Source: Burkholderiales bacterium
GTDB taxonomy: Bacteria; Pseudomonadota; Gammaproteobacteria; Burkholderiales; JACQAP01
Length of the DNA stretch: 64,000 nt
Assembly (NCBI GenBank): GCA_035275265.1
Contig: DATENC010000025.1
Coordinates: 10,230-74,229 of the forward strand
Direction: 5' to 3'
The position numbers and the translations under genes are program-made. The notes beneath the pieces were generated by a model. The model worked only from the letters and a program-made list of their open reading frames with translations. It was not told the DNA's origin and did not search any database. Numbering within the stretch: position 1 is the stretch's first letter; each line of letters begins with the position of its first letter. Below, one piece after another: positions 36,581 to 55,432 of this stretch.

Positions 36581-37080
36581 TCATTGTATTGATGGGCGTA
36601 TCGGGCGCCGGCAAGACCACGGTCGGAGAACGGCTTTCCGAGCGGCTCGGCTGGCCGCTTTTGGACGCAGATGCATTTCACCCGCCGGCCAATATCGAAA
36701 AGATGCGTTCCGGAATTCCTCTCACTGATGAGGACCGTTGGCCGTGGCTCGACCGGCTCAACGGCCTGCTCAAAGAGAACGATTCGAATGGTGCGAGTGC
36801 GTTGCTGGCCTGCTCTGCGCTCAAGCAGAAGTATCGCGACCGTCTCGCGGTTGGCTGCAGCAACCTGCGCTGGGTGTACCTCAAAGGCAGCTTCGAATTG
36901 ATCGAGGCGAGGCTGAAGGCCCGGAAGGGACATTACATGAAGGCGGGACTCCTCGAGTCGCAGTTTGCCGCGCTCGAAGAACCCGTTGACGCAATTACTG
37001 CCGACATCGGTGCCGCTCCTGAAGCGATCGCAGACGCGGTGGAGGCCGCGCTCACGTCCGCTGCGGGATCTCATCGGTGA
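36577..37080 (+). CDS. gntK: gluconokinase
   Basis: MIIVLMGVSGAGKTTVGERLSERLGWPLLDADAFHPPANIEKM...LTDEDRWPWL. ATGA overlap with the upstream gene. Confidence 0.85.
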   Translation: MIIVLMGVSGAGKTTVGERLSERLGWPLLDADAFHPPANIEKMRSGIPLTDEDRWPWLDRLNGLLKENDSNGASALLACSALKQKYRDRLAVGCSNLRWVYLKGSFELIEARLKARKGHYMKAGLLESQFAALEEPVDAITADIGAAPEAIADAVEAALTSAAGSHR

Positions 37081-37616
37081 GTACAATCCATCAATGCGTC
37101 GCGTTTGCCTTGTTGTTCTGCCCGACGGCACTGGCAACCGCGTGGGAAGCCGATGCGCCGGCACCCAAAATTGCCGCAGTCATGGATTTCGAGTTGATCG
37201 ACGACATGCGCGACTACGAACGCCCCGAGGTCAAGGACGCCCAGGACCGGAGGATCGGCCTCATCAGCGATGCGCTGCGCCAAGAATTACTTCAGCGCGG
37301 GATGTACCGACTAGCGGACAATGCCGCGGCCGCAAAACTCATCTCTAACCTGAGGGCGCAACAGGATCTGCGCGATTGCAACGGCTGCGAGATCGACATC
37401 GGCAGGGCGCTCGGTGCCGAAGTCATCATCATCGGCTGGGTGCAGAAGGTCAGCAACCTGATCCTCAACATCAACATCCAAGTCAGGGAAGTAAGCTCCG
37501 GCAGGATGCTATACGTGAAATCGGTGGATCTGCGCAGCAACTCGGACAACTCATGGCTGCGCGGTATCCGCTATATGGTGGACAGCATCGAAGAGAAGAA
37601 GCAGCACCTGCGCTGA
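37077..37616 (+). CDS. secreted protein of unknown function (LpoB/CsgG-like small periplasmic fold?)
   Basis: Signal peptide, then AAVMDFELIDD ... GAEVIIIGWVQKVSNLILNINIQVREVSSGRML pattern. GTGA overlap with gntK. Confidence 0.5.
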   Translation: MSTIHQCVAFALLFCPTALATAWEADAPAPKIAAVMDFELIDDMRDYERPEVKDAQDRRIGLISDALRQELLQRGMYRLADNAAAAKLISNLRAQQDLRDCNGCEIDIGRALGAEVIIIGWVQKVSNLILNINIQVREVSSGRMLYVKSVDLRSNSDNSWLRGIRYMVDSIEEKKQHLR

Positions 37617-39460: not shown

Positions 39461-40321
39461 TTACTCCGTGACTTTGGTGGCGAGCCCGCGACGAACTGCG
39501 AGCAGGGACTCGAACTTGAGGTCCTTGGTATCCAAGACTTCCGCCTTCAGATTGCCTTCTTCGCGGGGCACGAAGTAAAAACGGAAGTTCGGATTCTCGC
39601 TGATAGAGAAGTCCACGTCGGCACTGAGGACCTGCTTTCCGGCATAGGTGACGTTGATGGTCCTGACGAAGTACGCCGGCACGAAGAGGCGCGTCATCTG
39701 GTCCATCGCCAGGCCTGAATGGTTCGGGTGGCTGATCATCAGTTGCGCCATGTTCGGCTCACCGAACACCACGGACTGATCCAGATGAAATTTCATGCGA
39801 CCCAGCCGCACCAGCGCGGCTTCGGGATCCTTGCCCGCGGGCGCCGAACAGCCTCCCGCCGCCTTGACGAACTTCGCCGAGCCGTACAGTTCGCCGTCGC
39901 TCAACTCGGCAATCGCCCGCACCGGCGTGTACTCCTCGATACGGATGCGGGTCTCGATTTCCGCAAGACCGCTGTCCGGCGTGAAATGGAAAATCGCGGC
40001 GATGGGCGATGGGTTCCTGTCGACGATCAGATAAACCGTACGGACGTAACGCGAGGCGGCCTGCGGCATCCGGGTGCGAATCGCGATCGGCACAGTGGCC
40101 GCGTCCTGCGCCCGGTAAGGCGCGTCCAGCCAAATCACCTCGTCGGCGTCGGCGCTGATCGCGCGGGAGCCGAAGAAGCTCTCGCGCACCTTCAACCAAA
40201 TTTCGGTATCGGGCACCGCCTCTGCGGCCGGCGCCTCGGGCACTGGCAACGCGCAGACCAGACCCAGCAACAGCGGCCCGCACCATTTGTGCATCCCGCG
40301 CGGAACTTTGGCCAACCTCAT
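39461..40321 (-). CDS. fused SoxY-like/SoxZ-like periplasmic carrier protein
   Basis: Signal peptide. SoxY-like half ends in KAAGGCSAP (carrier-cysteine motif). SoxZ-like half MKFHL...MAQLMISHPNHSGLAMDQ...YFV. ATGA overlap with the upstream small ORF. Confidence 0.7.
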   Translation of the reverse strand: MRLAKVPRGMHKWCGPLLLGLVCALPVPEAPAAEAVPDTEIWLKVRESFFGSRAISADADEVIWLDAPYRAQDAATVPIAIRTRMPQAASRYVRTVYLIVDRNPSPIAAIFHFTPDSGLAEIETRIRIEEYTPVRAIAELSDGELYGSAKFVKAAGGCSAPAGKDPEAALVRLGRMKFHLDQSVVFGEPNMAQLMISHPNHSGLAMDQMTRLFVPAYFVRTINVTYAGKQVLSADVDFSISENPNFRFYFVPREEGNLKAEVLDTKDLKFESLLAVRRGLATKVTE

Positions 40322-40689
40322 TCCTCCTTGCGCAAGAAGCAACCTTTCTGCGCCTTTGCTTCGATGGTCCGGAATTTCTTGGCCATGTCCTGCGACACCT
40401 GCGCATCGCGCAACTGCGCGCCTCGCTCCCCGGCGATCGGAACCGCGTTCGCCGCCGTCGACAGCTCCACGTACTCGCCGTAGCGGACTTGCGCCGCGAT
40501 ACGGTCGATCGTACAGGAACATTTGTACAGCATTTCGTGGCGGCTGCCGGGATGGTTGCGCATGCATTCCTGCACGTACTCCACGCGATCCACCGTCGGA
40601 AAATCGTTCCGGGCCGCATTGGCAGTGGGTGCTGTCGCGGCGAACGCGAGGAAGCCCAGAAAGTTGGCAAATCGCATTTTCATTGTCAT
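40318..40689 (-). CDS. small secreted Cys-containing protein, unknown function
   Basis: 123 aa. Signal peptide MTMKMRFANFLGFLAFAATAPTANA. Four Cys (CMRNH, CSC, GCF). ATGA overlaps on both sides. Confidence 0.55.
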   Translation of the reverse strand: MTMKMRFANFLGFLAFAATAPTANAARNDFPTVDRVEYVQECMRNHPGSRHEMLYKCSCTIDRIAAQVRYGEYVELSTAANAVPIAGERGAQLRDAQVSQDMAKKFRTIEAKAQKGCFLRKEE

Positions 40690-41537
40690 TCCCGGCTGCC
40701 GTTGAAGGGTGCGTTCAGGGCCTTGTCGCGGAAGTTTTGCGGATCCGGATTTCCCGGCTCCGCCTCCACCCACGCGTCCGTTAATCGCAGCAAGTCGGGC
40801 CAATTTTGCGCCGCCTCCAGCGACGTGGCACGCATGAAATACGGTTGCTCCGACTGCGACCGCTCCCAGAAAGACTTTGCGTCGCCAAGCGGCGCCACAG
40901 GTTGGTAGCGGGACAGGTCGAGCACGCGCTCGCTGAACCATTCGACCGGCATCGAGAAGAAGTAAGCCCCCCTTACTGGAAGCCGGAACGAGAGAATGCC
41001 AACCAGCCTGCCGTCCTCGTCGAACAGTCCCCCGCCGCTGGCGCCACCGGAAAAGGCCGCACTGCTTCGTATCACCTGACCACCGTCGAGCGAGTGCAAA
41101 CCGAGCACGTCGCCAATCGAGACCTGGATTCCGGTCGCTCCGCCGTAACCGATCGCCGTGACCGGCTGCCCGACGTGCAGACCCGCGCTGGTGGCAAGCG
41201 GCGCCGCCCTGGCATCCAGCCCGGGAACCCATAGCAGGCAAAGGTCATGGTCGATATCGGCGAACTGGGCGCGCGCATTCCATCGCAATCCGCCTTTGAC
41301 GACGTAAATCGACTTCGCTTCCCTCGTGACGTGACAATTGGTGACAACACGATCCGGCGCAATCACCACGGCGGTGCCAAACGCATACCCGCCGGTGGTC
41401 TTGTTAGCTTCAACCCGCGCCAGGCTTGGCGCCAACTTCAATAGCTGCGCACGGCCCGGGTCCGCCCACGCACTGGCGCAGGCGAGCAGGAATATCGCCA
41501 GCGTCGCCAGGTTCAGAACCGAAGGCAGCGTCCTCAC
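40686..41537 (-). CDS. periplasmic trypsin-like serine protease with a C-terminal extension
   Basis: His/Asp/Ser triad context (VVTNCHV, DHDLCLL, GGASGGGLF) and a signal peptide if the GTG at 41537 is used (RTLPSVLNLATLAIFLLACASAWA). The longer ORF to 41828 overlaps xoxJ. Confidence 0.7.
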   Translation of the reverse strand: MRTLPSVLNLATLAIFLLACASAWADPGRAQLLKLAPSLARVEANKTTGGYAFGTAVVIAPDRVVTNCHVTREAKSIYVVKGGLRWNARAQFADIDHDLCLLWVPGLDARAAPLATSAGLHVGQPVTAIGYGGATGIQVSIGDVLGLHSLDGGQVIRSSAAFSGGASGGGLFDEDGRLVGILSFRLPVRGAYFFSMPVEWFSERVLDLSRYQPVAPLGDAKSFWERSQSEQPYFMRATSLEAAQNWPDLLRLTDAWVEAEPGNPDPQNFRDKALNAPFNGSRE

Positions 41538-41602
41538 CTCAATATGTTGCCGGGCTTTCCGCCCGATCGCAGCGCAATTGCGTGCGGCCTCGTGAACACG
41601 CC

Positions 41603-42499
41603 TCACAGGTCCTGAAGCGGAATTCGGTAGCTCTGCAGGATTTCGCGAATCTGCGGCAACTTCGATTCGATCAGTCCATCGATGCGCTGCTTCCACTTGG
41701 TTTCCCCGTGGCGCACCCCCATCGCTACCTGGTAGTCGAACTTCACCCCCGGTTCGGATGGCATGGGCACCACCACCACTTCGTGATCCTTGACCCGCGT
41801 TGCCGCGAAACCGGCGATCGGACCCCACACGACCGCCGCGTCCACCTTACCCTGCACCAGGTCCTTTTCGACGATCTCGCCGGGATAGTAATCGGGCCGC
41901 GCATTCATCATCCGGTACGGTACGCCACTATCGACCAGGTCATGCTTCTTCAGCCACTGAGTCCCGGGAGAACGGTCGAACAAGCCGATCTTGAGCCGCC
42001 GCAACTGCTCCTTCGGCAGCGCCAGGAAATCGGCAACGCTCTTGACCGCGTCCAATCCGCGGCCCTTGACGTACACCAGCGCGTAGGTAGAGCGGTAATA
42101 GGGCCGGGTGGTGGCGACCTGCTCGAATCCGACCGGCACTCCCATCATGATGTCGCAGCGGTAATCCTCTCCCGGCAGCTTATACCGCAGCGTATTGCGC
42201 ACGAAATTCAGCCGCTGCGCCTGAAAGTAGGTCTCGACCGGCAGGCCCATTTCACGCCCGAACAGCTCGGCGAGCTTGTTCTCGTAGCCTTCGCCCTTCT
42301 CGTTGGAAAAAGGCAGATTGTTGGGATCGGCACACACCTTGAGCACTTTGCGATCAGCCTCGTCTGCTTCATCGGCTATCGCGTCCGCCCCGAACATGAT
42401 GAGTACGCACGCAATCAGCATCGCAAGCGCGCTTGCCCGCTGGTCTTTCAAAGTTCGGGAAGTTTGCAACACACGGTTATGACTGCTGGAGGGCTTCAA
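41603..42499 (-). CDS. xoxJ: MoxJ/XoxJ-like periplasmic solute-binding protein
   Basis: LKVCADPNNLPFSNEKGEGYENKLAELF motif of MxaJ/XoxJ-type binding proteins. TTG 42499 overlaps the xoxG stop; ATG 42421 is an alternative start. Confidence 0.75.
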   Translation of the reverse strand: MKPSSSHNRVLQTSRTLKDQRASALAMLIACVLIMFGADAIADEADEADRKVLKVCADPNNLPFSNEKGEGYENKLAELFGREMGLPVETYFQAQRLNFVRNTLRYKLPGEDYRCDIMMGVPVGFEQVATTRPYYRSTYALVYVKGRGLDAVKSVADFLALPKEQLRRLKIGLFDRSPGTQWLKKHDLVDSGVPYRMMNARPDYYPGEIVEKDLVQGKVDAAVVWGPIAGFAATRVKDHEVVVVPMPSEPGVKFDYQVAMGVRHGETKWKQRIDGLIESKLPQIREILQSYRIPLQDL

Positions 42500-42912
42500 G
42501 GTTTCAGTTCCTCGACCTTGGCACGCGTGATGGCGCCGTCGGATCGGCCCTTGAGGTAGGCATAGAGGTTGTCCATGTTGTCCATGACGATCTTGCTGGT
42601 CTTGAAGGCGACCATCCCTTTCTCGAGCCTGCCCTCGGCGACGGTCTTGACGAACTCCTCCTTGCTCAGCACCTTCAGGCTGCTAATCAGCGAAGGGCCG
42701 ACCATGCCCTCCTGGTTGGCGCCGTGACAGCGGTCGCAGGCCGCAGCGCGCCACGCTCGGAATCCCTTCATCGTGGCCGAATCCACTTTGTAACCATCCA
42801 CTACGGTGTACAGCTTGCTGCCGGAAGCGGGTTCATCTGCCCCTGACTGGAACGTTGCAATCGCCAGAAACACGAAGACCAGACTTCTTGTTGTCGACAT
42901 TGCGGTGCTCAT
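42496..42912 (-). CDS. xoxG: c-type cytochrome (XoxG-like electron acceptor)
   Basis: Signal peptide plus a single haem motif CDRCH. Immediately downstream of xoxF. Confidence 0.75.
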   Translation of the reverse strand: MSTAMSTTRSLVFVFLAIATFQSGADEPASGSKLYTVVDGYKVDSATMKGFRAWRAAACDRCHGANQEGMVGPSLISSLKVLSKEEFVKTVAEGRLEKGMVAFKTSKIVMDNMDNLYAYLKGRSDGAITRAKVEELKP

Positions 42913-42939
42913 GATGTGTGAATCCCCGGGTTGATAAAG

Positions 42940-42974
42940 AAATGGCATCCCGTAAACGCACCGGGATGCCATTT
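42940..42974 (-). promoter_or_regulatory. 13-bp perfect stem-loop between xoxF and xoxG
   Basis: AAATGGCATCCCG-9 nt-CGGGATGCCATTT, 25 nt downstream of the xoxF stop. On the minus strand it is followed by CTTTATC. Confidence 0.55.
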
Positions 42975-42999
42975 CGCATACGAACTATTTTTTGGCTTG

Positions 43000-44796
43000 T
43001 CAGTTTCCGAGAGCAAACACCGTAAGCGATCCGCCCAGTTCGGTGTACTGGTTCAGTTCCTTGTAACCGCCTACCGCACCCAGGCCGTCGGTGTCTTTCT
43101 CCAGGCCGGCTGCCATGCCGATGCCGGCCCAGCCGCCGATGCCCGAGAACACCCCGACATACTGCTTGCCCTTGTGCTCGTAGGTGAATACGTTGCCGAT
43201 GATCCCGGAAGGGGTCTTGAACTTCCACAGTTCCTTGCCCTTCGTGTCCACCGCCTTGAGGTAGCCTTCCAGGGTTCCGTAGAAGACCACATCACCGGCC
43301 GTAGCAAGCGCGCCACTCCACACCGAGAATTTCTCCGGCTTCGACCAGACAATCTTGCCGGTGCCGGCATCCCAAGCAATGAAGTTGCCCATATGTTTGT
43401 CGCCTGGCGGCGGATACATGGAAAGCGTCGCCCCCACGTACGGTTGCCCCGCCGTATACTCGACTGCAAAGGGCTCGTAATCCATGCACACATGATTAGT
43501 AGGCACGTAAAAGAGCTTGGTCTTTGGCGAAAACGCCGCAGGCTGCTGGTCCTTGGTCCCCAATGCTGCCGGACATACGCCCTTGGTGTTCACGTCCGGG
43601 CCGTTTTGCGCCGTCGAGTACTTGGCAACCACCTGCGGACGGCCGGTCTTCATGTCCACGTGGGTTGCCCAATTCACCGACGGGTCATACTTCTGTGCTA
43701 CCAGCAGCGCGCCATTGGTGCGGTCGAGCGTATAGCCGAAACCATTGCGGTCGAAATGCACCAGTGCCTTGGTCATCTTGCCCTTGACCGGAATATCGGC
43801 GAGGATCATTTCGTTGATGCCGTCGAAATCCCACTCGTCGAACGGCGTCATTTGATAGACCCATTTCACCTTGCCGGTATCCACGTCACGCGCCCAGATG
43901 GACATGCTCCACTTGTTGTCGCCGGGACGCTGCGACGGGTTCCAGGTGCTCGGGTTGCCGGTGCCGTAGTACATCAGGTTGAGCGCCTTGTCGTAGCTGT
44001 ACCAGCCCCAGGTGGTGCCGCCGCCGATCTTCCACAGATCTTCCTTCCAGGTCTGCAGCGAGGAATCCTCTCCGACAGGCTGCACCTTGCCGTCCTTCCA
44101 AGCGGTGGTGGTCGTGGGATCGATCAGCATTTCGTCGTCGGGTCCCGTGCTGTAACCTTTCCAGACCAGTTCGCCGGTGTTGATGTTGTAGGCGGCAACA
44201 TAACCGCGCACGCCCCATTCGCCACCGCTGATGCCGGTGATCACCTTATCCTTGAATACATGCGGCGCATTGGTATTGACCGCACCCACGCTGGGATCTC
44301 CGTTCGCTACCGACCACAAGATCTTGCCGGATTTGGCATCGAAAGCGACCAGTTGGCTGTCCGCCTGCTGCAGGAACAGCTTGCCTTCCGCGTAGGCGAG
44401 GCCACGATTAACCGTGTCACAGCACATCTGCGGAATGACCGCCGGATCCTGCTTGGGGGTGTATTTCCACTTGATCATGTTGGTATTCAGATCGATCGCG
44501 AAGACCTTGTTCGGAAATGGCGAATGCAGATACATCATGTCGCCGATAACAAGCGGGGAGCCTTCATGACCGCGCAATACGCCTGTTGAAAAAGTCCAGG
44601 CGACCTGAAGTTTGTTGACGTTGCCGGCGTTGACCTGGCTGAGCTTGCTGTAGCGCTGGTTGTACATGTCGCCAGCCTGCATAGCCCAGTTCTTTGGATT
44701 TGCAATGAGTTTTTCAACGTCCGAGTTGGCTTGTGCCACGCCTGCTGTGGCGGACAAGACCAACGGCAAAACCAGATAACGTAAAGTCACTCTCAT
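43000..44796 (-). CDS. xoxF: PQQ-dependent methanol/ethanol dehydrogenase, XoxF (lanthanide) type
   Basis: 598 aa with a signal peptide, the vicinal CC (PQMCCDTVN), W-rich propeller repeats and DEWDFDG (Asp two residues after the catalytic Asp). Strong AGGAGGAGG RBS. Confidence 0.9.
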
Positions 44797-44892
44797 GCCT
44801 CCTCCTGCTTATAGTGTTTTGAAGTTGACCACAGAGTAGTTCGCTCGCCTCACGGTGCCTGCGCATCACCTCTTCACCGCAACGGCATACAC

Positions 44893-44923
44893 ATTTCCGG
44901 CACATGCATTTCCGGACGGAAAT
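44893..44923. promoter_or_regulatory. candidate operator: three ATTTCCGG-type half-sites upstream of xoxF
   Basis: ATTTCCGG (44893-44900), ATTTCCGG (44908-44915) and inverted CGGAAAT (44917-44923). The last two form ATTTCCG-GA-CGGAAAT. About 100-125 nt upstream of the xoxF ATG. Confidence 0.3.
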
Positions 44924-45121
44924 CTCACCGAACGTGTATCTCTATACAAGCACAGTGCTTTTACAGGGTCAACAGATTTCCAGAATGAAAATCGTATGCT
45001 CTGGACGGTGACATGAATGCGACCTTCGAAGGGTGTTTCAGTTCTGGACAACTGTTGCAGGTTGAATCAGAGTCGTCGCCGCGCGTCGCTGTTTTTGGCG
45101 ATGACCTAAGGCGAAAGCACG

Positions 45122-47161
45122 TCAACCGTGCAAGTCATCTCTGCGCTTGCGCGCGCTACCGCGCCGGTCAGGATCAGGCGCGGCGAAGGAGGAATGCTTG
45201 AGTTTTCGGTAGAGCGTGGTGCGGCTCACGTTGAGTTGGCGCGCAGCCGCAGAGATGTTGCCGTTGCAGTTGCGGATGGTTTCCTGGATTGCCTGCAGTT
45301 CAATCTGCTCCAGACTGTCCGCATACATCGAGGACATGACCGCTTGCGCAGCAACCGGTTCGCGAGCCGGTGCCGCAGGTGCAGGCGCCAGTTCTTCGAG
45401 AAAGTCCTCAGGTAGATGGCTGCGTTCGAGTTTCTCGCCCGCGTCCATCATCGCCAGCGCGGCTCGGATAACCGAATGCATCTGCCGCAGATTTCCCGGC
45501 CAGGGGTGATGCGCGAAAATGTCCATGACCACAGGCGAGATCTCGATACGGCGCGCGGCAACGCACTCCTTCGCGGCCAGCGCCGTCGCCAACTCGAGCA
45601 GGTCCTTCCGTTCCCGCAACGGCGGCAGGAACAGCGTGAGACCATTGAGACGGTAATAAAGGTCCTCGCGAAAGCCGCCCGCCCGCACCAGGTCGTGCAG
45701 CTTGTGGTGTGTCGCGCAGATGACCGCCAGATCGACGTTCACCGGCTTGCCATCGAGCGGCGTTATCGCGCGCTCCTGCAGGACACGCAGCAACCGCGCC
45801 TGCAGGTTCAGCGGCATGTCCCCGATCTCGTCCAGGAAAAGCGTTCCGCCGTCCGCCTGCTGGATCTTGCTGATCGTTGACTTGTGTCTGGCGCCGAACG
45901 CGCCCTCCTCGTATCCGAACAATTCTGCCTCGAGCGGGCCCTCCGAAATGGCCGCGCAATTCAGTGCCACAAACTCGCCCCCTGCACGCGTGCCGCTGTT
46001 GTGGATTGCGCGCGCCAGCCATTCCTTGCCGACGCCGGTTTCACCCTCGATCAGGATCGGAATGTCGCGGCCGAGCGTGCGGCGCGCCTTTTCGATGTTG
46101 AACAGCGTCACCGGATCGGATGCGCCGAGCGTATCGAGCGTCAGTTCGTCCAGCGCACGCTGGCCGTCGAATCCCATCTGCCGCTTTTCCGTTGAAGAGG
46201 CCACCGGCTTCCCATGACCCGTTTTCGCGACTACTGTGGGCTGCGCCAATCGCAGGTATACCGGCATGCCGTTGTGGCGCAGACGCACTTGTATCCCTGG
46301 CGGCGAGACCGATCCAAGCTTGCGCAGTACCTGCTCGAAAGAAGCGTCGAACAGTTCCTCGAACACTCCGCGGAAGGCACCCGGACGCAGGTCAAGCTTT
46401 CCGCAGGTTGCCGGTGTTGCCGCCAGGTAAGCGCCATCGGGCGAAAAAGCCACCTGCACATCGAACGGGCTGCCGAGATAGTTGAGTTCCGGGTGAACAT
46501 TGAAAACCACATCGCGGCAGAAGCGGTGCTGGAACATCTGCCTCTCGATCACCCGCACCGCCATCTGTACCAGCGCGATGGTGTGGCGCTGGTGGCCGCG
46601 GTAGTCGCAGGTGATGTCGAGCACGCCGGCCACATCGCCGCTCGGATCGAGCACCGGAGTGGCGGAACATGCCAGGAAATGATTCTGCCGGATAAAGTGG
46701 TGCCCGGCGTAGATCACCACCGGTTCGCGTTCGACGATCGCGGTACCGATGGCGTTGGTGCCCTTCTGCTCCTCGGCCCACGAAACACCAGGCTTGAGCG
46801 CAACGTGCTGGGCCCTGGGAATGAAATCCGGATCACCCAACGAATGCAGGATGAGGCCGTCCCCGCTGCAGAGGAGCACTACGCTTCCCGAGCCGGTGAG
46901 CTGGTGATGGAGATTTTCCATTACGGGGGCCGCAAGATTGATCAGGCTCCCGTACTGGCTCATAGTCACCCGAAGATCCGTCTCATCGATCCGCCCGACT
47001 TCGCGGATGCGATCGTTAGCTACGCCGAAGGCAACGCTGCGTTGCCACGATCGCTTGATGAAATCCGGGACGACGCCCTCCGGAACAGACCCCTTCTCGA
47101 GGAATTGTCCGTAGGCACGGCGGATTGCCGTAACGTCGGTGTTGATCTGGTTGTGATTCAC
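45122..47161 (-). CDS. AcoR-like enhancer-binding-protein-family regulator (GAF + AAA+ + Fis HTH) with degenerate GAFTGA
   Basis: Walker A GETGVGKE, Walker B LFLDEIGDM, C-terminal HTH NGNISAAARQLNVSRTTLYRKL. The sigma54-contact loop reads GAFGAR instead of GAFTGA. Confidence 0.85.
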   Translation of the reverse strand: MNHNQINTDVTAIRRAYGQFLEKGSVPEGVVPDFIKRSWQRSVAFGVANDRIREVGRIDETDLRVTMSQYGSLINLAAPVMENLHHQLTGSGSVVLLCSGDGLILHSLGDPDFIPRAQHVALKPGVSWAEEQKGTNAIGTAIVEREPVVIYAGHHFIRQNHFLACSATPVLDPSGDVAGVLDITCDYRGHQRHTIALVQMAVRVIERQMFQHRFCRDVVFNVHPELNYLGSPFDVQVAFSPDGAYLAATPATCGKLDLRPGAFRGVFEELFDASFEQVLRKLGSVSPPGIQVRLRHNGMPVYLRLAQPTVVAKTGHGKPVASSTEKRQMGFDGQRALDELTLDTLGASDPVTLFNIEKARRTLGRDIPILIEGETGVGKEWLARAIHNSGTRAGGEFVALNCAAISEGPLEAELFGYEEGAFGARHKSTISKIQQADGGTLFLDEIGDMPLNLQARLLRVLQERAITPLDGKPVNVDLAVICATHHKLHDLVRAGGFREDLYYRLNGLTLFLPPLRERKDLLELATALAAKECVAARRIEISPVVMDIFAHHPWPGNLRQMHSVIRAALAMMDAGEKLERSHLPEDFLEELAPAPAAPAREPVAAQAVMSSMYADSLEQIELQAIQETIRNCNGNISAAARQLNVSRTTLYRKLKHSSFAAPDPDRRGSARKRRDDLHG

Positions 47162-47620: not shown

Positions 47621-47971
47621 TCACCGTCTGCGCTCGATGCGTACGCCAACGTCGCGGGCGTTGGGGACAACATCGATCTTGGAAATCTCGACCTGCACCC
47701 ACTGTGCTTCGAATCTCGACAACATCAATTCCGCCAGTGTGTCCGCCAGCGGCTCGAGCAGGTGGAAGCGGTGCGAAGCGAACACTTCCCGGACCGCGCC
47801 CACCACTGCCGCATAGTCGATGGTGTCGGCAAGCTGGTCGGTCTTGCACGCGCGAATCCCGTGACGGCCGATGTCTATGTTGACTTGCAAGGTTCTCGGC
47901 TGGCGGCGCTCATGCTCAAAGGCGCCGATGAGCGTTTCGAGCTTTATGTCGCGGACGAAGATGATATCCAT
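47621..47971 (-). CDS. folB: dihydroneopterin aldolase-family protein
   Basis: MDIIFVRDIKLETLIGAFEHERRQPRTLQVNIDI...DTIDYAAV, typical of FolB. Trimmed from the longer ORF (to 48157). Confidence 0.75.
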   Translation of the reverse strand: MDIIFVRDIKLETLIGAFEHERRQPRTLQVNIDIGRHGIRACKTDQLADTIDYAAVVGAVREVFASHRFHLLEPLADTLAELMLSRFEAQWVQVEISKIDVVPNARDVGVRIERRR

Positions 47972-48041
47972 GGACCGGTCGGAGACTGGCGTGGTTCCGG
48001 GCGAATTCCTGTCTGCCCGCACGGATGGCCTCACCACAGCC

Positions 48042-48419
48042 TCAGTCATACTTGATGTACTTGAAACGCTGGTCGTCGTTAGGGGTTCCCTCCAGAGCAC
48101 CGCCATCCTTGGCCGGCTGCCACTGGACCACTTCCTCGATTTTTTTCGCCAGCGCAATATCCTTGTCGGTGATGCCTTTTGCCGAATGGGTGACGAGCTT
48201 CACGATCACGAACGCGTACGAGACGGTGAGGTCGGGATGGTGCCAGGCCGCTTCCGCGAGATGGCCAACCGTGTTCACCACCATGAGTGTGCCTTTCCAG
48301 CCGCCAGTCTTGAACTTCCTTCTGATCCAGCCGTCCTCGTAATACCAGTGCGGCAGTTCCGCGGAGAGGCGTTGTTTCACCTCGTCCTCGCTGTAGGCTT
48401 TTTCCGTTGGCTCCGCCAT
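48042..48419 (-). CDS. pterin-4a-carbinolamine dehydratase
   Basis: VGHLAEAAWHHPDLTVSYAFVIVKLVTHS motif of the PCD/DCoH family. Confidence 0.8.
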   Translation of the reverse strand: MAEPTEKAYSEDEVKQRLSAELPHWYYEDGWIRRKFKTGGWKGTLMVVNTVGHLAEAAWHHPDLTVSYAFVIVKLVTHSAKGITDKDIALAKKIEEVVQWQPAKDGGALEGTPNDDQRFKYIKYD

Positions 48420-48677
48420 GTCATCTCCCTGCGTGCGCAGACACGATCATTCTCTCCGGTGCATTCTATCCAACTATCGCAGAGGCGCCAGCGTGTTCCG
48501 TTCCGCACCGAACACGGCTAACATCAGTGTCATGCACTCCGGTCGCGCGGGCGTTCCAATATTGGACAGATGCAGTGGACAGTTGCCTGCGCACGACCAA
48601 CCGGACGTTCCTCGACCCCATGAATCCTTTCACCATCCGCAACCGCCAACAACGCAGCGGGCGTAGCATTCATTTGT

Positions 48678-49229
48678 ATGGCTAAAGTCAAAGCGCCACG
48701 CATCGCGTGGGTACTTACCGGTTCCGGTCACTACCTGAAGGAGTGCATGGAGATCATCCGTCAACTTCGCGGGGTAAACCTGTTTCTCAGCGAAGCCGCG
48801 GACGAAGTGCTCAAGATGTACGGTTACGATCTCGCCAAGCTCAGGCAGAACATGAAAGTCTTCCGCGACAGCACCGCTAGTTCGGTGCCGGTGACATTTC
48901 TGTATGGCGGCGACTATCACACCGTGGTGATCGGCCCCGCGAGTTCCAACACCGTGGCCAAATGCGTCACCGGGATCTCCGATACGCTTGCGACCAACAT
49001 CTATGCGCAAGCCGGCAAATGCCGCATCCCCTCTATCGTGTTCGCGTGCGATACGGCGCCCGCGCTCGTTTCGGAGGCTCCTGGCGGCGACGTCTGGGTC
49101 TATCCGCGCCTGATCGACCTGGAGAACGTCGGCAAGCTCGCGAAGTTCGACTACACCACGGTGGTGATTTCGGTCGAGGAACTGCAGGTGGCGCTCGACC
49201 AGAGACTTGCCGAAGTCGCGCATGGATGA
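48678..49229 (+). CDS. flavoprotein (archaeoflavoprotein AfpA / Dfp-like)
   Basis: RIAWVLTGSGHYLKECMEII... and GPASSNTVAKC, typical of the flavoprotein family found in H4MPT gene clusters. Confidence 0.75.
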   Translation: MAKVKAPRIAWVLTGSGHYLKECMEIIRQLRGVNLFLSEAADEVLKMYGYDLAKLRQNMKVFRDSTASSVPVTFLYGGDYHTVVIGPASSNTVAKCVTGISDTLATNIYAQAGKCRIPSIVFACDTAPALVSEAPGGDVWVYPRLIDLENVGKLAKFDYTTVVISVEELQVALDQRLAEVAHG

Positions 49230-50619
49230 GCACATCGTCTTCCTGACCGGCCGGCTCGCCGAGCGGAGCCTCAATCGCGTGATCGAGTCGATGCAGCCGG
49301 CGCCCTTCAGGCACACCGTCCACGTCCTGTCGATTCAAGTGGCCGGACTGATGACCTCGGAAATGATCCGGCGCAGGCTGCCGGATGCGCTCGGCGCCAG
49401 CCGGGTAATCGTGCCGGGACGTTGCCGCGGCGACCTCGAACCCTTGAGCGTGCATTTCGGCGTGACGTTCCAGCGCGGGCCCGACGACCTCAAGGACCTT
49501 CCGCGTTTCTTCGGCCGCGAAGCAAGGCCGCTGGATCTGTCGAAGCACGACGTGCGCATCTTCGCCGAAATCGTGGACGCCCCGAACATGAGCGTCGAAG
49601 CGATCATCGAACAGGCCAGCGCCTATCGCGATTCCGGCGCGGACGTGATCGATCTTGGCTGCCTGCCGCAGACTCCGTTCCCGCATCTGGAGGAATCCAT
49701 CGCCGCGCTGCACGCCGCCGGTTATCAGGTAAGCGTGGATTCGATGGACGAGGACGAGCTTCTCCGCGGCGGACGCGCGGGCGCTGATTTCCTGCTTTCG
49801 CTGAAGAACGAGTCGCTTTGGATCGCCGACGAGGTCGCCTCGACGCCGGTGCTGATCCCGTCGAAGGCCGGAAATCTGCGCTCGCTTCTGCGCGCGATCG
49901 AAGCGATGGACAAGAGGGGGCGCGCCTATCTCGCCGACCCGATTCTCGACCCGATCCACTTCGGCTTCACCGAATCGCTGATGCGTTACCGCGAACTGCG
50001 CCGCCGGCTGCCGGAACTGCAGATCATGATGGGCACTGGCAACCTGACCGAACTGACCGATGCGGATACGCTGGGCATGCAAGCGATCTTGATGGGCATA
50101 GTTTCCGAGTTGCGCATCACCAACATTCTCACGACCCAGGTGAGCGCGCATGCATCGGGTGTGGTGCACGAGGCAGACGCCGCGCGGCGCATGATGTATG
50201 CCGCGCGAGAAGCCGACGATCTGCCGCGAGCCTTCGGCGAAGCGCTACTGGCATTGCGCTCGCTGGACCCCTTTCCGTACAGCGCCGAAGAGATCGCCGC
50301 CACCGCTGCCGCAATCAAGGACCCCAGCTTTCGTATCCAGATCAGTCCGGAGGGGCTGCACGTCTACAACCGCGATGGACTGCGCACCGCCACCGATCCG
50401 TTCAAGCTGTTCCCGCATCTCGGCCTCGAGGCCGATGGTTCGCATGCCTTCTATATCGGAGTGGAACTGTCGCGGGCGCAGATCGCCTGGCAGTTGGGAA
50501 AACGCTACGTACAGGATCAGGAACTCGAATGGGGTGCGGCGCAGCTACGCCGCAGCGACGGTTCCGAAGCGCAATGCGCGCCGGCGCCAGACGGCGAGAA
50601 AGCCAAGGCCGCATCGTGA
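49222..50619 (+). CDS. dihydropteroate-synthase-like protein (H4MPT biosynthesis-associated)
   Basis: Pterin-binding TIM-barrel region (GADVIDLGCLP ... VSVDSMD ... ILDPI). ATG 49222 overlaps the flavoprotein gene's end by 8 nt. Confidence 0.7.
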   Translation: MDEHIVFLTGRLAERSLNRVIESMQPAPFRHTVHVLSIQVAGLMTSEMIRRRLPDALGASRVIVPGRCRGDLEPLSVHFGVTFQRGPDDLKDLPRFFGREARPLDLSKHDVRIFAEIVDAPNMSVEAIIEQASAYRDSGADVIDLGCLPQTPFPHLEESIAALHAAGYQVSVDSMDEDELLRGGRAGADFLLSLKNESLWIADEVASTPVLIPSKAGNLRSLLRAIEAMDKRGRAYLADPILDPIHFGFTESLMRYRELRRRLPELQIMMGTGNLTELTDADTLGMQAILMGIVSELRITNILTTQVSAHASGVVHEADAARRMMYAAREADDLPRAFGEALLALRSLDPFPYSAEEIAATAAAIKDPSFRIQISPEGLHVYNRDGLRTATDPFKLFPHLGLEADGSHAFYIGVELSRAQIAWQLGKRYVQDQELEWGAAQLRRSDGSEAQCAPAPDGEKAKAAS

Positions 50620-51188
50620 TCCTGGAAACCATCATTACCACCCGCGACGAATTGGGCCGCGATCACATCGCGCCGATGGGAATCCGCGAAAAGGACGAAT
50701 TCATCGTGTTGAGCCCCTTCCGGCCATCGGCAACGCTGGAGCACGTCCTGCGCGAGAAATGCGCGGTAGTGAACTATACCGACGACGTGCGCATCTTCGC
50801 CGGTTGCCTGACCGGACGCTATGACTGGCAGACCGTTCCGGTAGTGCATCTTCCTTGCCGTCGCCTGGCAGGGGCACTCGCGCACGCGGAGGTGAAACTG
50901 GAGCGCGTGGAGGACGACGCGACCCGTCCGCGCCTGTATTGCCGTGAACTCGCCCGCGAAACCCATGGTGCGTTTCGCGGCTTCAACCGCGCACAGGCGG
51001 CGGTAGTCGAGGCCGCGATACTGGTAAGCCGGCTCAACATGCTGCCGCAGGAGAAGATCGACACGGAGATGGCCTACCTCAGAATCGCGGTCGAGAAAAC
51101 CGCGGGGCCGCGTGAACTCGAAGCCTGGGGCTGGCTCACCGCCCGGATCGAGGAGTTCCGCGTACGCGACAAGGAACGGTCGGCATGA
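50616..51188 (+). CDS. DUF447-like protein (H4MPT cluster-associated)
   Basis: ILETIITTRDELGRDHIAPMGI, as in DUF447 flavin-reductase-like proteins. GTGA overlap upstream and ATGA overlap downstream. Confidence 0.65.
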   Translation: MILETIITTRDELGRDHIAPMGIREKDEFIVLSPFRPSATLEHVLREKCAVVNYTDDVRIFAGCLTGRYDWQTVPVVHLPCRRLAGALAHAEVKLERVEDDATRPRLYCRELARETHGAFRGFNRAQAAVVEAAILVSRLNMLPQEKIDTEMAYLRIAVEKTAGPRELEAWGWLTARIEEFRVRDKERSA

Positions 51189-51886
51189 CGGCGATGCTCG
51201 CAAGCGTGCGCACCCTCGACGAGGCGCTGTTCGCGCTCGAAGCCGGCGCCGATTTCATCGACCTCAAGGAACCATCGCAAGGTGCACTCGGCGCACTCGA
51301 TCATGCGGCAGTGCGAGTGTGCGTGAATGCAATCGGCGGACGCCGGCCAGTCAGCGCTACGATCGGTGACATCGTTTCCATGCAACCGCGTGAGATGGCC
51401 ACCGCGGTGGAGCGCATGGGCGCAACCGGCGTGGACTACATCAAGATCGGTTTCTTTGTCCATCCTCGAACTTTCGACTGTGCTGCGGCGTTGAAAACGC
51501 TGGCGTGCAGGACGCGACTTGTCGCCGTAATGTTTGCGGACGAAACCTACGATCTCGCGCTTGTTGACGCTCTCGCCAACGCGGGCTTTGCCGGCGCGAT
51601 GCTGGACACCGCACACAAGACTGGCAAGACGCTGCGCGACTGCCGCAATGAAGAAGAGTTCCGGGAGTTTGTGAATCGAGCCAGAGCCCATGGACTTCTT
51701 TCCGGCCTGGCTGGCTCACTGCGCAAGGAAGATATCGAGCCACTCCTCAAGATCGAGCCAGACTATCTCGGGTTCCGTGGTGCGCTGTGCTCACGATCCA
51801 AACGGAACCAGAATCTCGATGCGGAAGCTTTCGCCAGGATTCGAAGCGCTATTCCAGATTTGGAATGTATTGGCATCACTCAATAA
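51185..51886 (+). CDS. MfnB-like (5-formylfuran-3-yl)methyl phosphate synthase (DUF556)
   Basis: MLASVRTLDEALFALEAGADFIDLKEPSQGALGAL and a KIGF motif, as in MfnB-family aldolase-fold proteins. Confidence 0.7.
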   Translation: MTAMLASVRTLDEALFALEAGADFIDLKEPSQGALGALDHAAVRVCVNAIGGRRPVSATIGDIVSMQPREMATAVERMGATGVDYIKIGFFVHPRTFDCAAALKTLACRTRLVAVMFADETYDLALVDALANAGFAGAMLDTAHKTGKTLRDCRNEEEFREFVNRARAHGLLSGLAGSLRKEDIEPLLKIEPDYLGFRGALCSRSKRNQNLDAEAFARIRSAIPDLECIGITQ

Positions 51887-51910
51887 GGCACCTTAGACCG
51901 ATCCTGTTTT

Positions 51911-52174
51911 TCATCGCGCGTCCCCTGCTTCATCTTCGATTCGGTTGACGACTTTTATTCCGCGGCTGCCTAGCTCCGCAGCTAGGCGGATCACAAACCT
52001 TCGGTCTGCCTGCTTGAGCAATGCGTGTGACTCGGCCGGCGTCCGATACGTCACCGTCCGATGGAGCGTGCGAACAGCAAGTGTTGTACGGTCATGTAGG
52101 CTTTTGAATCCAACAAATGCCACGTAGAACACCAAAGGCACCACGATGAACCCGATAATCGCTTGGCCTATCAA
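51911..52174 (-). CDS. cassette ORF: small protein with an N-terminal TM helix
   Basis: 87-aa ORF (TTG start in the ORF track). IIGFIVVPLVFYVAFVGF hydrophobic segment. The stop lies 12 nt before a GTCTAAG (R''-like) heptamer. Confidence 0.4.
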   Translation of the reverse strand: MIGQAIIGFIVVPLVFYVAFVGFKSLHDRTTLAVRTLHRTVTYRTPAESHALLKQADRRFVIRLAAELGSRGIKVVNRIEDEAGDAR

Positions 52175-52248
52175 GAATGGAATTGATATCGCTAAAGCGG
52201 ACGCCGCACAAAGAAGGCCAACTTTCCATCCTCCGCGGGAATAGGGGG

Positions 52249-52458
52249 CTAGCGTAACTCAGTTATCTCAGCCAATGGAACGCGCTCCCAATACGTGCGG
52301 AAGGGAAAGAGATAACGCCACAAATAGAAGGCCCGGTCAGTAATTGCCGCCGCGAAATCGACCGAGCGGTGGAACGTGCCGTTGACGTCCGTGAAAATCA
52401 CCGACTCGCCCACATCGAGCGGTAGCTGGGTAAAGGGACGGCCGTGATACATGCTCAT
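52249..52458 (-). CDS. cassette ORF: small soluble protein, unknown function
   Basis: ATG 52458 lies 3 nt after the GTTGGCC core (GTTGGCC-ttc-ATG). About 69 aa. Confidence 0.45.
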   Translation of the reverse strand: MSMYHGRPFTQLPLDVGESVIFTDVNGTFHRSVDFAAAITDRAFYLWRYLFPFRTYWERVPLAEITELR

Positions 52459-52461
52459 GAA

Positions 52462-52551
52462 GGCCAACGTTCTCAGTAACCGGCGCGTGCGGCCGGGTAC
52501 ATGCAAGGCACAGCACCCGCGCGCGCCTCCGCATTGACTGAGAAGTTAGAC
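52462..52551 (-). repeat. attC-like site (90 bp)
   Basis: Minus strand reads GTCTAAC ... GTTGGCC. Inner arms TTCTCAGT/ACTGAGAA pair perfectly, with a 1-nt spacer asymmetry. Confidence 0.6.
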
Positions 52552-52577
52552 AGCATTTGAGCCATCGGTAAAGGCTA

Positions 52578-53081
52578 TTAGACTCCGAGACGACGCCACA
52601 CGGTGTGGGCTCCCAGTACAGGCAGTACCAGCACCGAGATCCACGCGACGATGAACGCAATCGGCCGCCAAGCATCCGGCAGAAGGCCACCGTGGGACTC
52701 GCCGAGCAGGAGCGCAATGATGAAGGCCACCACACCAACGACACACAGCAGCCCCAGGTACGCGAGAACCGTCAGGAACCACCTCATGCCCGCTGACTGC
52801 ACCCTCATTGGATAAGCGCGAAGGATTCTGGCGCCGAGGTTGAAGATGCCCCAGAAGTAGAAAAACTGCGCGACGGAGCCGAAAAAGTAGGCGCCGTCGG
52901 CGGTTCCAGTCGTCCTGGCTGCTACCAGCATTGTGAGCAACGCAGGCCAGAACGCCGCAACAGCGATTCCACGCAGGAAAAAACCCGGGCCGCGCGCAAC
53001 ATAGTCGTACAACATGACGCCGATGACACCGCCGGCAATGGCTATCGGCACCACGATGAGTCCTACCTTGACGGCTTTCAC
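52578..53081 (-). CDS. cassette ORF: polytopic membrane protein, unknown function
   Basis: 167 aa with about five hydrophobic helices. GTG start, 80 nt after the GTTAGAC core. Confidence 0.6.
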   Translation of the reverse strand: MKAVKVGLIVVPIAIAGGVIGVMLYDYVARGPGFFLRGIAVAAFWPALLTMLVAARTTGTADGAYFFGSVAQFFYFWGIFNLGARILRAYPMRVQSAGMRWFLTVLAYLGLLCVVGVVAFIIALLLGESHGGLLPDAWRPIAFIVAWISVLVLPVLGAHTVWRRLGV

Positions 53082-53154
53082 GAGTGTGCCGGCCTGCGAT
53101 CCGGGAAGGTTTTGGACTCCTCGTATTGACCGTTACGCGCCATATTCATGTGCT

Positions 53155-53211
53155 GTCTAACGTCGTGGTGAACGGCGGGCCCTGCCCATCCGTTCCACCC
53201 AAGGGTTAGGC
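53155..53211 (-). repeat. attC-like site (57 bp)
   Basis: Minus strand reads GCCTAAC ... GTTAGAC. Inner arms GGTGAACGG/CCGTTCCACC pair with one bulged base. Confidence 0.65.
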
Positions 53212-53242
53212 GCTCTGCGGACATCGCGGATTGCTCTTTCAT

Positions 53243-54076: not shown

Positions 54077-54087
54077 ACCGGGGTGGC

Positions 54088-54168: not shown

Positions 54169-54169
54169 G

Positions 54170-54511: not shown

Positions 54512-54514
54512 GAC

Positions 54515-55430: not shown

Positions 55431-55432
55431 GC

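Follow-up and report, generated by a model that had tools for sequence, protein, structure and literature searches.

What do the three genes that close an xoxF operon in a Burkholderiales bacterium encode, and how do they relate to the methanol dehydrogenase genes that precede them? The operon lies within a 64,000-nucleotide stretch of contig DATENC010000025.1 (positions 10,230 to 74,229 of the forward strand; assembly GCA_035275265.1), which is referred to below as the window; all coordinates are those of the window. xoxF, a cytochrome c gene and an xoxJ-like gene are followed by genes for a serine protease, a small protein with four cysteines (hereafter 4-Cys) and a fused SoxY-SoxZ protein (hereafter SoxYZ). 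We conclude with high confidence that the region is the tail of a single translationally coupled operon, xoxF-cytochrome c-xoxJ-like-protease-4-Cys-SoxYZ-like carrier, that the three genes at its end specify accessory proteins of the lanthanide methanol dehydrogenase, exported by the Sec route, and that they represent one form, flavour A, of a modular gene set. A SoxYZ-like carrier beside XoxF is a known, named system, and the window holds a recurring variant of it that is free of metallo-β-lactamase-fold hydrolases (MBLs). The features of the operon are as follows.

43000-44796, minus strand: xoxF, lanthanide-type methanol dehydrogenase dependent on pyrroloquinoline quinone (PQQ), 598 aa (TIGR03075; PDB relatives 6dam and 6oc5)
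42496-~42912, minus strand: c-type cytochrome in the xoxG position (Pfam Cytochrome_CBB3; CDRCH)
41603-42499, minus strand: xoxJ-like protein with a periplasmic binding-protein fold, 298 aa, TTG start (TIGR03871)
40686-41537 (283 aa) or 40686-41606 (306 aa), minus strand: HtrA-like S1 serine protease without PDZ (Pfam Trypsin_2)
40318-40689, minus strand: small periplasmic 4-Cys protein, 123 aa, without a family match
39461-40321, minus strand: SoxY-SoxZ fusion carrier, 286 aa (TIGR04557; Pfam SoxY and SoxZ)
39839-39856, minus strand: GGCSAP carrier motif, residues 156-161 (codon of Cys158 at 39850-39848)
40686-40689, minus strand: ATGA stop/start overlap of the protease and 4-Cys genes, read from the sequence
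40318-40321, minus strand: ATGA stop/start overlap of the 4-Cys and SoxYZ genes, with AGGAGG ahead of it, read from the sequence

From 39461 to 44796, the minus strand carries the six genes in tandem. Each has homologues at E-values of 1e-60 to 1e-187 and the gene order is conserved, so the open reading frames (ORFs) are real genes rather than chance ones. Sec-type signal peptides were recognized by eye on the protease (AWA/DP), the 4-Cys protein (ANA/AR) and SoxYZ (APA/AE), in agreement with a preliminary description of the region that had placed three exported proteins downstream of xoxF-xoxG-xoxJ on the same strand.

For comparison, 160 related loci (designated by L numbers) were examined. 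Half of them are the best 80 from a SoxYZ-based pattern scan with one genome per species, which found a relative in at least 544 genomes; these loci show 53-85% identity and come mostly from Burkholderiales, Rhodocyclaceae and Nevskia. The other half are the best 80 of at least 576 relatives of the 4-Cys protein found in a scan of metagenome contigs. The ORFs of the SoxYZ-side loci were all translated and searched with the six window proteins and with two MBLs, a longer protease and the U225 protein described below, which were taken from L003 and L005.

The gene junctions point to translational coupling. The stop codon of the cytochrome gene and the TTG start of xoxJ overlap in the tetranucleotide TTGA (42499-42496, read from the sequence), and the two ATGA overlaps listed above, already pointed out in the preliminary description, are present in the sequence. 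The further suggestion that they imply stoichiometric co-production does not follow, because such overlaps signify translational coupling, not stoichiometry. Among the related loci, a 4-nt overlap is possible at 56 of 75 cytochrome/J junctions, and equivalents of the two ATGA overlaps at 21 of 29 protease/4-Cys junctions and 12 of 43 4-Cys/SoxYZ junctions. A promoter and terminator scan returned no sigma-70 promoter-like site, with terminator-like sites at chance level, and Rfam gave zero matches across 36.5-47.5 kb of the window.

The terminal gene places the operon in a curated family. Its product scored 272.5 bits on TIGR04557 (cutoff 140), covering the full-length model (1-226), and Pfam assigns residues 47-158 to SoxY (1e-35) and residues 186-271 to SoxZ (8e-26). 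An AlphaFold (AF2) model built from 47 homologues (mean predicted local distance difference test score, pLDDT, 83.8) matched Paracoccus SoxY (2ox5_Y) with a template modelling (TM) score of 0.82 and SoxZ (2oxh_A) with a TM score of 0.89 and a root-mean-square deviation of 1.5 Å. The fold comparison had been named beforehand as the check on which the proposed SoxY/SoxZ fusion with an internal GGCSAP motif would stand or fall, and the protein passed it. GGCSAP sits on the loop that joins the two domains, where pLDDT drops to ~66 across residues 151-170; as modelled, this low-confidence loop would fit a flexible arm. GGCSA(P) occurs in almost all of the ~100 SoxYZ-like ORFs of the related loci, and Cys158 is invariant in both alignments inspected (A1 and A3). 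The window protein thus has every mark of a TIGR04557 carrier: the score, two domains in one chain, an inter-domain GGC and a place in the same operon as XoxF.

It is not a canonical Sox protein. Its scores on the canonical SoxY (TIGR04488, 69.7 bits) and SoxZ (TIGR04490, 55.4 bits) models lie below the cutoffs of 125 and 76, and its carrier cysteine is internal, with 128 residues after it, rather than on the C-terminal GGCGG arm of canonical SoxY. None of SoxAX, SoxB and SoxCD was found among the ~50 window ORFs scanned with Pfam or NCBIfam. Tat export, as for SoxY, was considered for the carrier and rejected, a twin-arginine-like motif being present in just 1 of 120 homologues. The two metallohydrolases of the curated relay are likewise missing, as the preliminary description had stated: phmmer searches with three MBL references (E<1e-5) found no relative in the operon or elsewhere in the 64-kb window, which therefore lacks the adjacent MBLs of the three-gene quinoprotein relay system (TIGR04557+TIGR04558+TIGR04559).

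At the head of the operon, XoxF scored 745.8 bits on TIGR03075 (cutoff 480). Its nearest solved relatives are 6dam (964 bits) and 6oc5 (929 bits), followed by MxaF-type chains (~610-670) and ethanol dehydrogenases (~350). The protein contains a vicinal cysteine pair (QMCCDT) and the motif WDFDG, whose second Asp is a lanthanide ligand in XoxF enzymes. Family, nearest solved XoxF, extra Asp and vicinal cysteine pair together identify it as an XoxF lanthanide methanol dehydrogenase. The cytochrome, which starts at Met21 or Met25 of a 158-aa ORF (the L001 orthologue is called at 134 aa), matches Pfam Cytochrome_CBB3 at 1.4e-10 and has the haem motif CDRCH. It scored 57.1 bits on TIGR03874, under the cutoff of 161.75 for this model of XoxG-type cytochromes; its place in the xoxG position makes an xoxG-type function probable. 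The XoxJ-like protein belongs to the XoxJ/PedG type (273.7 bits on TIGR03871, cutoff 212).

The protease gene has two candidate starts, GTG at 41537 (283 aa) and GTG at 41606 (306 aa), the latter in a GTGA overlap with the xoxJ stop codon. A database protein 100% identical to the window protease (P0121) is called at 306 aa, and most orthologues are called at 289 aa. Trypsin_2 covers residues 54-181 of the 283-aa form (Pfam, 6.4e-26) and leaves a C-terminal remainder of ~100 aa, so the trypsin-fold protease with a ~100-aa C-terminal extension proposed earlier is borne out. Catalytic His69, Asp98 and Ser167 (numbered from 41537) are kept in at least 95% of 35 orthologues, and the domain and intact triad together make the protein a trypsin-fold serine peptidase of family S1. 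Among solved structures, DegQ, DegP, AlgW and MarP-like enzymes come closest to it (E ~1e-8). The protease lies outside the HtrA/DegP family as curated, with 47.8 bits on TIGR02037 (cutoff 416) and no PDZ domain in the Pfam scan. One further feature of the catalytic domain is a pair of cysteines, C68 directly before the catalytic His and C100 two residues past the catalytic Asp, both found in 95% or more of the orthologues; a disulfide between them may bridge the two catalytic segments.

The small protein between the protease and SoxYZ has the 123 residues and four cysteines given in the preliminary description, at positions 42, 57, 59 and 117, and its signal peptide ends in ANA. No match was found in Pfam, NCBIfam or, by profile, the PDB sequences, and a Foldseek search of its model against the PDB gave none under E=2. 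The family is nonetheless abundant: a word-indexed search returned 126 homologues, every one labelled hypothetical, and an exhaustive profile search returned 693 representatives of 50%-identity clusters at E<=1e-3, 453 of them at E<=1e-10. The four cysteines are kept in at least 99% of sequences, and further conserved positions are D29-x-PT, K56, D62, G87-E-R-G and R94. The AlphaFold (AF2) model (pLDDT 79) has four helices; C42 ends helix 1, C57-x-C59 starts helix 2 and C117 lies just past helix 4.

A natural in-frame fusion of the two families, protease::4-Cys, was found between xoxJ-like and SoxYZ-like genes (P0264, 342 aa; L088:1247-2275). It runs from the protease core with the beginning of the tail through a joint of ~10 residues into a mature 4-Cys domain, which is 55% identical to the window protein over 94 aa and begins exactly one residue past the signal peptide of the latter. 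A sequencing frameshift would not be expected to remove the signal peptide so cleanly. Two distant members of the 4-Cys family adjoin DUF302-type proteins instead of XoxF genes: a DUF3280+DUF302 protein is directly upstream of one (L089) and a DUF302-only protein is upstream of the other. The idea that the 4-Cys protein is an exclusive partner of SoxYZ was rejected, given these distant members beside DUF302/DUF3280 proteins and the occurrence of the 4-Cys gene after xoxFGJ-U225 without SoxYZ.

The related loci show how the trio is distributed. Their consensus order is XoxF-cytochrome-J-[protease]-[U225]-4Cys-MBL-SoxYZ-MBL'-[second SoxYZ], with bracketed members variable. The MBL directly upstream of SoxYZ is TIGR04559 (327 bits for the L003 reference and 367 for the L005 reference, cutoff 280); the one downstream, MBL', is a paralogue that scores under the cutoffs of both TIGR04558 and TIGR04559. 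Forty-seven loci of the SoxYZ side have complete flanks, and their contents are:

4-Cys protein: 46 of 47
MBL': 40 of 47
MBL (TIGR04559): 38 of 47
XoxF: 34 of 47
U225: 33 of 47
protease: 20 of 47

The most constant member of the set is the 4-Cys protein, not the hydrolases. On the 4-Cys side, xoxJ lies upstream in 28 of 28 loci with enough upstream sequence, with protease and/or U225 between in 27 of them. The 25 loci with enough downstream sequence divide into 12 with SoxYZ and MBL, seven with SoxYZ without MBL and six with neither, so that the 4-Cys protein is tied to the XoxF cluster as much as to SoxYZ. The co-conservation with xoxFGJ in other genomes that had been expected is thus seen. 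Three arrangements can be distinguished:

Flavour A (the window): J, protease, 4-Cys, SoxYZ
Flavour B: J, (protease), U225, 4-Cys, MBL, SoxYZ, MBL', (SoxYZ')
Flavour C: J, (protease), U225, 4-Cys only

Flavour A was seen in two clades: that of the window itself (L008-L010, L094, L095 and L100) and another whose SoxYZ is only 57-60% identical to that of the window (L075 and L061, the latter on a complete chromosome of 5.3 Mb). A neighbour-joining tree puts the window clade beside an MBL-containing locus; four metagenome loci that were left out of the tree (L103, L116, L127 and L163) are also of flavour A. Judged by these sequences, the reduced form protease-4Cys-SoxYZ recurs in at least two divergent clades. 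The tail of the protease differs between the flavours. Most orthologues have ~180 residues past the Ser motif, and those of ~340 aa bear tetratricopeptide (TPR) repeats, whereas only 112-121 residues follow the motif in both of the flavour-A clades, which lack U225 (~120 aa in the window). Since most orthologues have the longer TPR tail, the extension of the window protease would be the stump of a TPR module.

The preliminary description had the protease and the small Cys protein occupying the position of the metallohydrolases. This is not so: in the full cluster, J-protease-U225-4Cys-MBL-SoxYZ-MBL', both sit upstream of the MBLs. A replacement of the MBLs by the two proteins was likewise rejected in that form, since, of 54 complete in-line loci, 40 combine the 4-Cys protein with one or more MBLs, and 22 of these 40 also have the protease. 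Within the same 54 loci, however, the 14 without MBL contain the protease in 13 cases and U225 in three, and the 40 with MBL contain the protease in 22 and U225 in 37 (Fisher p = 0.011 for protease and 1e-6 for U225, in tests that ignore shared ancestry). U225 therefore comes and goes with the MBLs, and the protease stays where they are lost. A swap of hydrolases is thus conceivable.

U225 is an unnamed exported family of ~225 aa without a Pfam or NCBIfam match, exemplified by L003:9328-10023 and L005:2942-3610, absent from the window; its gene precedes that of the 4-Cys protein and comes after that of the protease (or after xoxJ). In L017 (13407-14255; 236 bits on TIGR04557, motif TSGGCSAPPN) and in ~15 other loci, MBL' is followed by a further SoxYZ-like paralogue of divergent sequence, so the full system has two MBL-carrier pairs. 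Two loci without SoxYZ and MBL (L136 and L157, ~7400-11000) continue after 4-Cys with genes for YVTN-type beta-propeller, MxaD-like SRPBCC, MoxR-like ATPase and vWA-type proteins, as assigned by eye. The Nevskia locus L005 has a zinc-type alcohol dehydrogenase (ADH_N/ADH_zinc_N) and an esterase (6507-8464) in one string with cytochrome, J, 4Cys, MBL and SoxYZ, and XoxF, protease and U225 in a separate upstream string; the dehydrogenase and the esterase resemble glutathione-dependent formaldehyde dehydrogenase and S-formylglutathione hydrolase.

Beyond the operon, the window contains the following genes that bear on it.

45122-47161, minus strand: sigma-54-dependent activator with GAF, AcoR/MimR-like (Pfam GAF, Sigma54_activat and HTH_8)
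37077-37616, plus strand: DUF3280 periplasmic protein with a CNGC (CxxC) motif, 2 kb from the operon (Pfam DUF3280, 2e-45)
58427-58939, minus strand: fae, methylotrophy gene
60910-62022, minus strand: mch, methylotrophy gene
63034-63975, minus strand: mtdB-like methylotrophy gene
55433-56542, minus strand: tetrahydromethanopterin (H4MPT)-linked C1 protein (TIGR03123)
47621-48157, minus strand: FolB-domain gene
59012-59923, minus strand: CitG-like gene

The DUF3280 protein was missed in the preliminary description. It is syntenic in relatives: CxxC-bearing homologues occur in 29 other related loci, mostly directly after SoxYZ and on the opposite strand, and in both flavour-A clades. It is possibly a further member of the system, and its recurrence means that the cluster encodes three different exported proteins with conserved cysteines. 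As far as the sequences compared can tell, the accessory set is spread over Burkholderiales, Nevskiales and relatives, with the DUF3280 CxxC protein as an optional member.

The sigma-54 activator directly upstream of xoxF probably regulates the operon, and the same activator stands beside the cluster in L001, L003 and L005. A search for sigma-54 promoters (TGGCAC-N5-TTGCW, 3 mismatches) gave 291 matches against 295 expected. By eye, the 325-nt gap between the activator and xoxF (44797-45121, minus strand) contains two tandem GG-N10-GC strings, ccGGaaatgcatgtGCc and ccGGaaatgtgtatGCc, which are not claimed as promoters. With fae, mch, the mtdB-like gene and the TIGR03123 gene in the window, the operon sits inside a methylotrophy island, and 47621-63975 (minus strand), a region devoted to H4MPT-linked formaldehyde oxidation and its cofactors, also holds methanopterin- or methanofuran-type biosynthesis genes, including Mfn/Mpt-like ligases. 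The remainder of the window includes an exopolysaccharide/O-antigen type cluster unrelated to the operon (1-16400; GT1 glycosyltransferase, Wzy_C ligase-like protein, beta-helix protein, Wzz/GNVR and a Bac_transf priming transferase) and, at 26577-29968 on the minus strand, a molybdopterin-binding oxidoreductase subunit (MoCoBD_1/2) with an XdhC-type maturation factor. They are followed downstream by genes for an aldehyde dehydrogenase, an acyl-CoA dehydrogenase, a LigB-type dioxygenase and a MaoC dehydratase; synteny with L001 extends over all of these.

As to what the trio does, we tentatively favor a periplasmic cysteine-based maintenance module for XoxF, a reading that we regard as possible rather than probable. 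The SoxYZ-like protein, with its modeled fused SoxY/SoxZ fold, offers the invariant Cys158 on a flexible inter-domain loop as the counterpart of the swinging arm of SoxY. The four-helix 4-Cys protein, with its CxC and two further invariant cysteines, might be a thiol-disulfide exchange partner or an adaptor, acting on the carrier cysteine, on the cysteine pairs of XoxF or XoxJ during maturation, or on both, in a parallel to the action of SoxS on SoxY. The PDZ-less HtrA-like protease, brought in by its helical tail or by the 4-Cys protein, to which it is joined in the natural fusion P0264, would be the sole hydrolytic step remaining in flavour A. It might remove damaged or unassembled XoxF, XoxJ or carrier, or it might clear adducts from the carrier loop, a task that would fall to the SoxH-like MBLs in the full system. 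Together these activities would keep XoxF and its PQQ/vicinal-disulfide site in working order. We chose this model because, in loci without SoxYZ too, xoxJ is followed by the genes of the 4-Cys protein and the protease, because the HtrA relatives are client-directed quality-control proteases, and because three proteins with Cys motifs cluster together.

Several points weigh against the maintenance model. Many XoxF and MxaF systems mature without the genes of the trio, and the xoxFGJ genes of Methylobacterium extorquens, for example, are not known to have such a trio beside them; the role would therefore be auxiliary or lineage-specific. The model gives no clear reason for the paired MBL-SoxYZ cassettes, nor for the stand-alone MBL-SoxYZ-4Cys-MBL loci of the Methyloversatilis type (L052, L063, L068 and L073), which have no PQQ dehydrogenase within 10 kb. 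The CxC motif of the 4-Cys model may be structural rather than redox-active, the P0264 fusion is known from one metagenome contig only, and MBLs and U225 could be encoded elsewhere in the genome. The co-variation tests, finally, treat loci as independent of shared ancestry even though some are near-duplicates, such as L010 and L095.

The main rival, implied by the curated names 'carrier' and 'relay system', is a covalent substrate relay, which we consider rather unlikely. Cys158 would capture the aldehyde produced by the dehydrogenase (formaldehyde in this case) as a hemithioacetal that is converted to a thioester, with electrons passing to the cytochrome, after which a hydrolase would free formate and regenerate the carrier. 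That hydrolase would be the SoxH-like MBL in most relatives and a serine hydrolase in the MBL-less flavour, and the whole would be an analogue of the glutathione pathway (AdhI/FghA) that is protein-tethered and periplasmic. The carrier fold and the invariant Cys loop that such a relay needs are established, MBL-SoxYZ pairs are the commonest arrangement, and a hydrolase swap would agree with the presence of the protease in 13 of the 14 loci that lack MBLs. The active site of XoxF, however, is generally known to lie behind a narrow funnel, so that an internal protein loop is unlikely to bring a tethered substrate to PQQ; the relay also leaves unexplained why the 4-Cys protein and the protease occur without any SoxYZ in flavour C. 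Also in favor of the relay, the Nevskia string of adhI-like gene, esterase, cytochrome, J, 4Cys, MBL and SoxYZ adjoins glutathione-type formaldehyde genes, Rhodobacter-type clusters have soxH between adhI and xoxF (PMC5934484), and SoxYZ fusions have been argued to serve carbon rather than sulfur metabolism (PMC11237559), but the organism already possesses a cytoplasmic H4MPT pathway for formaldehyde, and HtrA-type enzymes are protein-quality-control proteases, not known thioesterases. In a stronger version, protease, 4-Cys protein and SoxYZ would form a self-sufficient periplasmic covalent-carrier pathway, in which the protease-fold serine hydrolase has replaced the MBLs and releases the acid. 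We give this version little credence; were it true, the pathway would be a protein-tethered counterpart of glutathione-dependent formaldehyde oxidation located outside the cytoplasm.

Handling of reactive sulfur is an alternative that we judge to be improbable. Here, Cys158 would bind sulfane sulfur, sulfite or thiosulfate-type species, to shield the electrophilic PQQ or to detoxify them, with the 4-Cys and DUF3280 CxxC proteins as partners in sulfur or thiol transfer. The homology to SoxY and SoxZ, the richness of the neighboring proteins in Cys motifs and the rhodanese- and thioredoxin-like genes of more distant versions (PMC12997753) are in its favor, as are the proposal that PQQ-sulfur adducts inhibit growth of Hyphomicrobium on methanol (PMC12997753) and a report, as cited in PMC11237559, that SoxH frees sulfate from SoxY in Sulfurimonas. 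Yet the fusion stays below the thresholds for true SoxY (69.7 vs 125 bits) and true SoxZ (55.4 vs 76 bits), the scanned window ORFs include no SoxAX, SoxB or SoxCD, the genes pmpA/pmpB that adjoin the SoxYZ-fusion/SoxH cluster of Hyphomicrobium denitrificans are unresponsive to thiosulfate (PMC11582611), and the clades include organisms that do not oxidize thiosulfate (PMC11237559). It is very unlikely that the protease, guided by the 4-Cys protein, processes the carrier by cutting the fusion loop just past Cys158 to give a free SoxY-type arm and a SoxZ-like partner. In true SoxY the carrier cysteine is at the extreme C-terminus, and the internal position of Cys158 in a flexible, low-confidence loop, the tightly coupled order protease-4Cys-SoxYZ and the P0264 fusion directly upstream of SoxYZ would suit such a cleavage. 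About half of the SoxYZ-containing loci, however, have no protease nearby, so cleavage is not generally required; the protease is also present in a locus without SoxYZ (L114), and the loop GGCSAPAGKD is conserved with or without it. Least credible of all is that the trio shares no function with xoxFGJ and is co-transcribed through operon history alone, its members having unrelated periplasmic targets. The accessory content does vary strongly between loci, and the SoxYZ and MBL genes of Pseudomonas putida showed minimal phenotypes in randomly barcoded transposon sequencing (RB-TnSeq; PMC12997753). Against this, the gene order is kept across more than 100 loci, even at ~45% protein identity, the 4-Cys gene follows xoxJ in all 28 informative loci, the start/stop overlaps are conserved and a protease::4-Cys fusion exists.

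Parts of the system have been discussed before. A 2026 review of the ped cluster describes PP_2677 (SoxYZ-like) and PP_2678 (SoxH-like) as uncharacterised and conserved with lanthanide alcohol dehydrogenases, and puts forward two hypotheses: on the one hand disulfide formation or cofactor stabilisation, on the other protection of PQQ from sulfur nucleophiles (PMC12997753). A study of SoxY diversity reports SoxYZ fusions beside PQQ alcohol dehydrogenases, xoxF and soxH (PMC11237559). The preliminary description had called the function of any such module beside a PQQ or lanthanide dehydrogenase untested, in agreement with these papers and with PMC11582611. In the paper collection searched, no paper joins xoxJ with 'serine protease', and the 4-Cys protein goes unmentioned in the literature examined. 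What is new here is that an abundant unnamed 4-Cys family is the most constant member of the system and that the PDZ-less HtrA-like protease, U225 and the DUF3280 CxxC protein also belong to it; new as well is that the presence of U225 follows that of the MBLs, while the protease remains where they are missing. Alcohol dehydrogenases that depend on lanthanides are found widely, and the SoxYZ-like carrier and the SoxH-like hydrolases beside many of them were given their names by curators ten years ago; the annotation understates both the size and the modularity of this accessory set. The minimal, MBL-free three-gene form is the simplest genetic handle on the role of the system for XoxF. The study thus yields a list of proteins to name and to seek in methanol/lanthanide proteomes, and a tractable minimal system rather than a new principle.

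Four known systems invite comparison with the trio. With canonical SoxYZ (Paracoccus pantotrophus 2ox5/2oxh; SoxB complex 4uwq), the window carrier shares both folds and a conserved cysteine after GG at the same relative position. Unlike there, the subunits are fused, the cysteine is internal rather than in a C-terminal GGCGG-COOH, and the signal peptide is of the Sec type. In the Paracoccus Sox system, SoxS/SoxV maintain the redox state of the SoxY thiol. The likeness to the 4-Cys protein is a functional analogy only, in that a carrier cysteine needs a dedicated partner and the 4-Cys protein is the carrier's constant companion; in sequence and fold the two are unrelated, the 4-Cys protein being a four-helix CxC protein rather than a thioredoxin, and no membrane supplier of reductant was seen nearby. 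The protease shares the periplasmic location and the Trypsin_2 His-Asp-Ser triad of the HtrA proteases DegP, DegQ, DegS, AlgW and MarP. It differs from them in having a helical/TPR-type C-terminal module in place of PDZ and a conserved Cys pair flanking His and Asp, and in being dedicated to one gene neighbourhood, and the similarity is weak (E ~1e-8, far under family cutoffs).

The closest named counterpart is the quinoprotein relay of NCBIfam (TIGR04557 with the zinc metallohydrolases TIGR04558 and TIGR04559), represented by PP_2677/PP_2678 beside pedH in P. putida and by META1p1703-1705 in M. extorquens. As in this relay, all the proteins are periplasmic, and a SoxY-SoxZ fusion over the curated cutoff, with an internal GGCSAP loop, is encoded beside a lanthanide-type PQQ alcohol dehydrogenase, a c-type cytochrome and a TIGR03871 protein. 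In contrast to it, the window has no metallohydrolase in the operon or in its 64 kb, and the trio is chained by 4-nt overlaps; where the Pseudomonas and Methylobacterium versions have rhodanese- or thioredoxin-like genes, the window has an HtrA-like protease and the 4-Cys protein. The full Burkholderiales/Nevskia cluster, seen in L017, L057 and L082 and in metagenome-assembled genomes of Variovorax, Rhizobacter and Methylibium, contains in addition U225, both MBLs and the second SoxYZ, all absent from the window, and a protease tail ~60 aa longer than in the window (~180 with TPR vs ~120). The protease, 4-Cys protein and SoxYZ of the window are nevertheless orthologous to those of the full cluster (45-60% identity), and are encoded in the same order behind the same xoxFGJ head.

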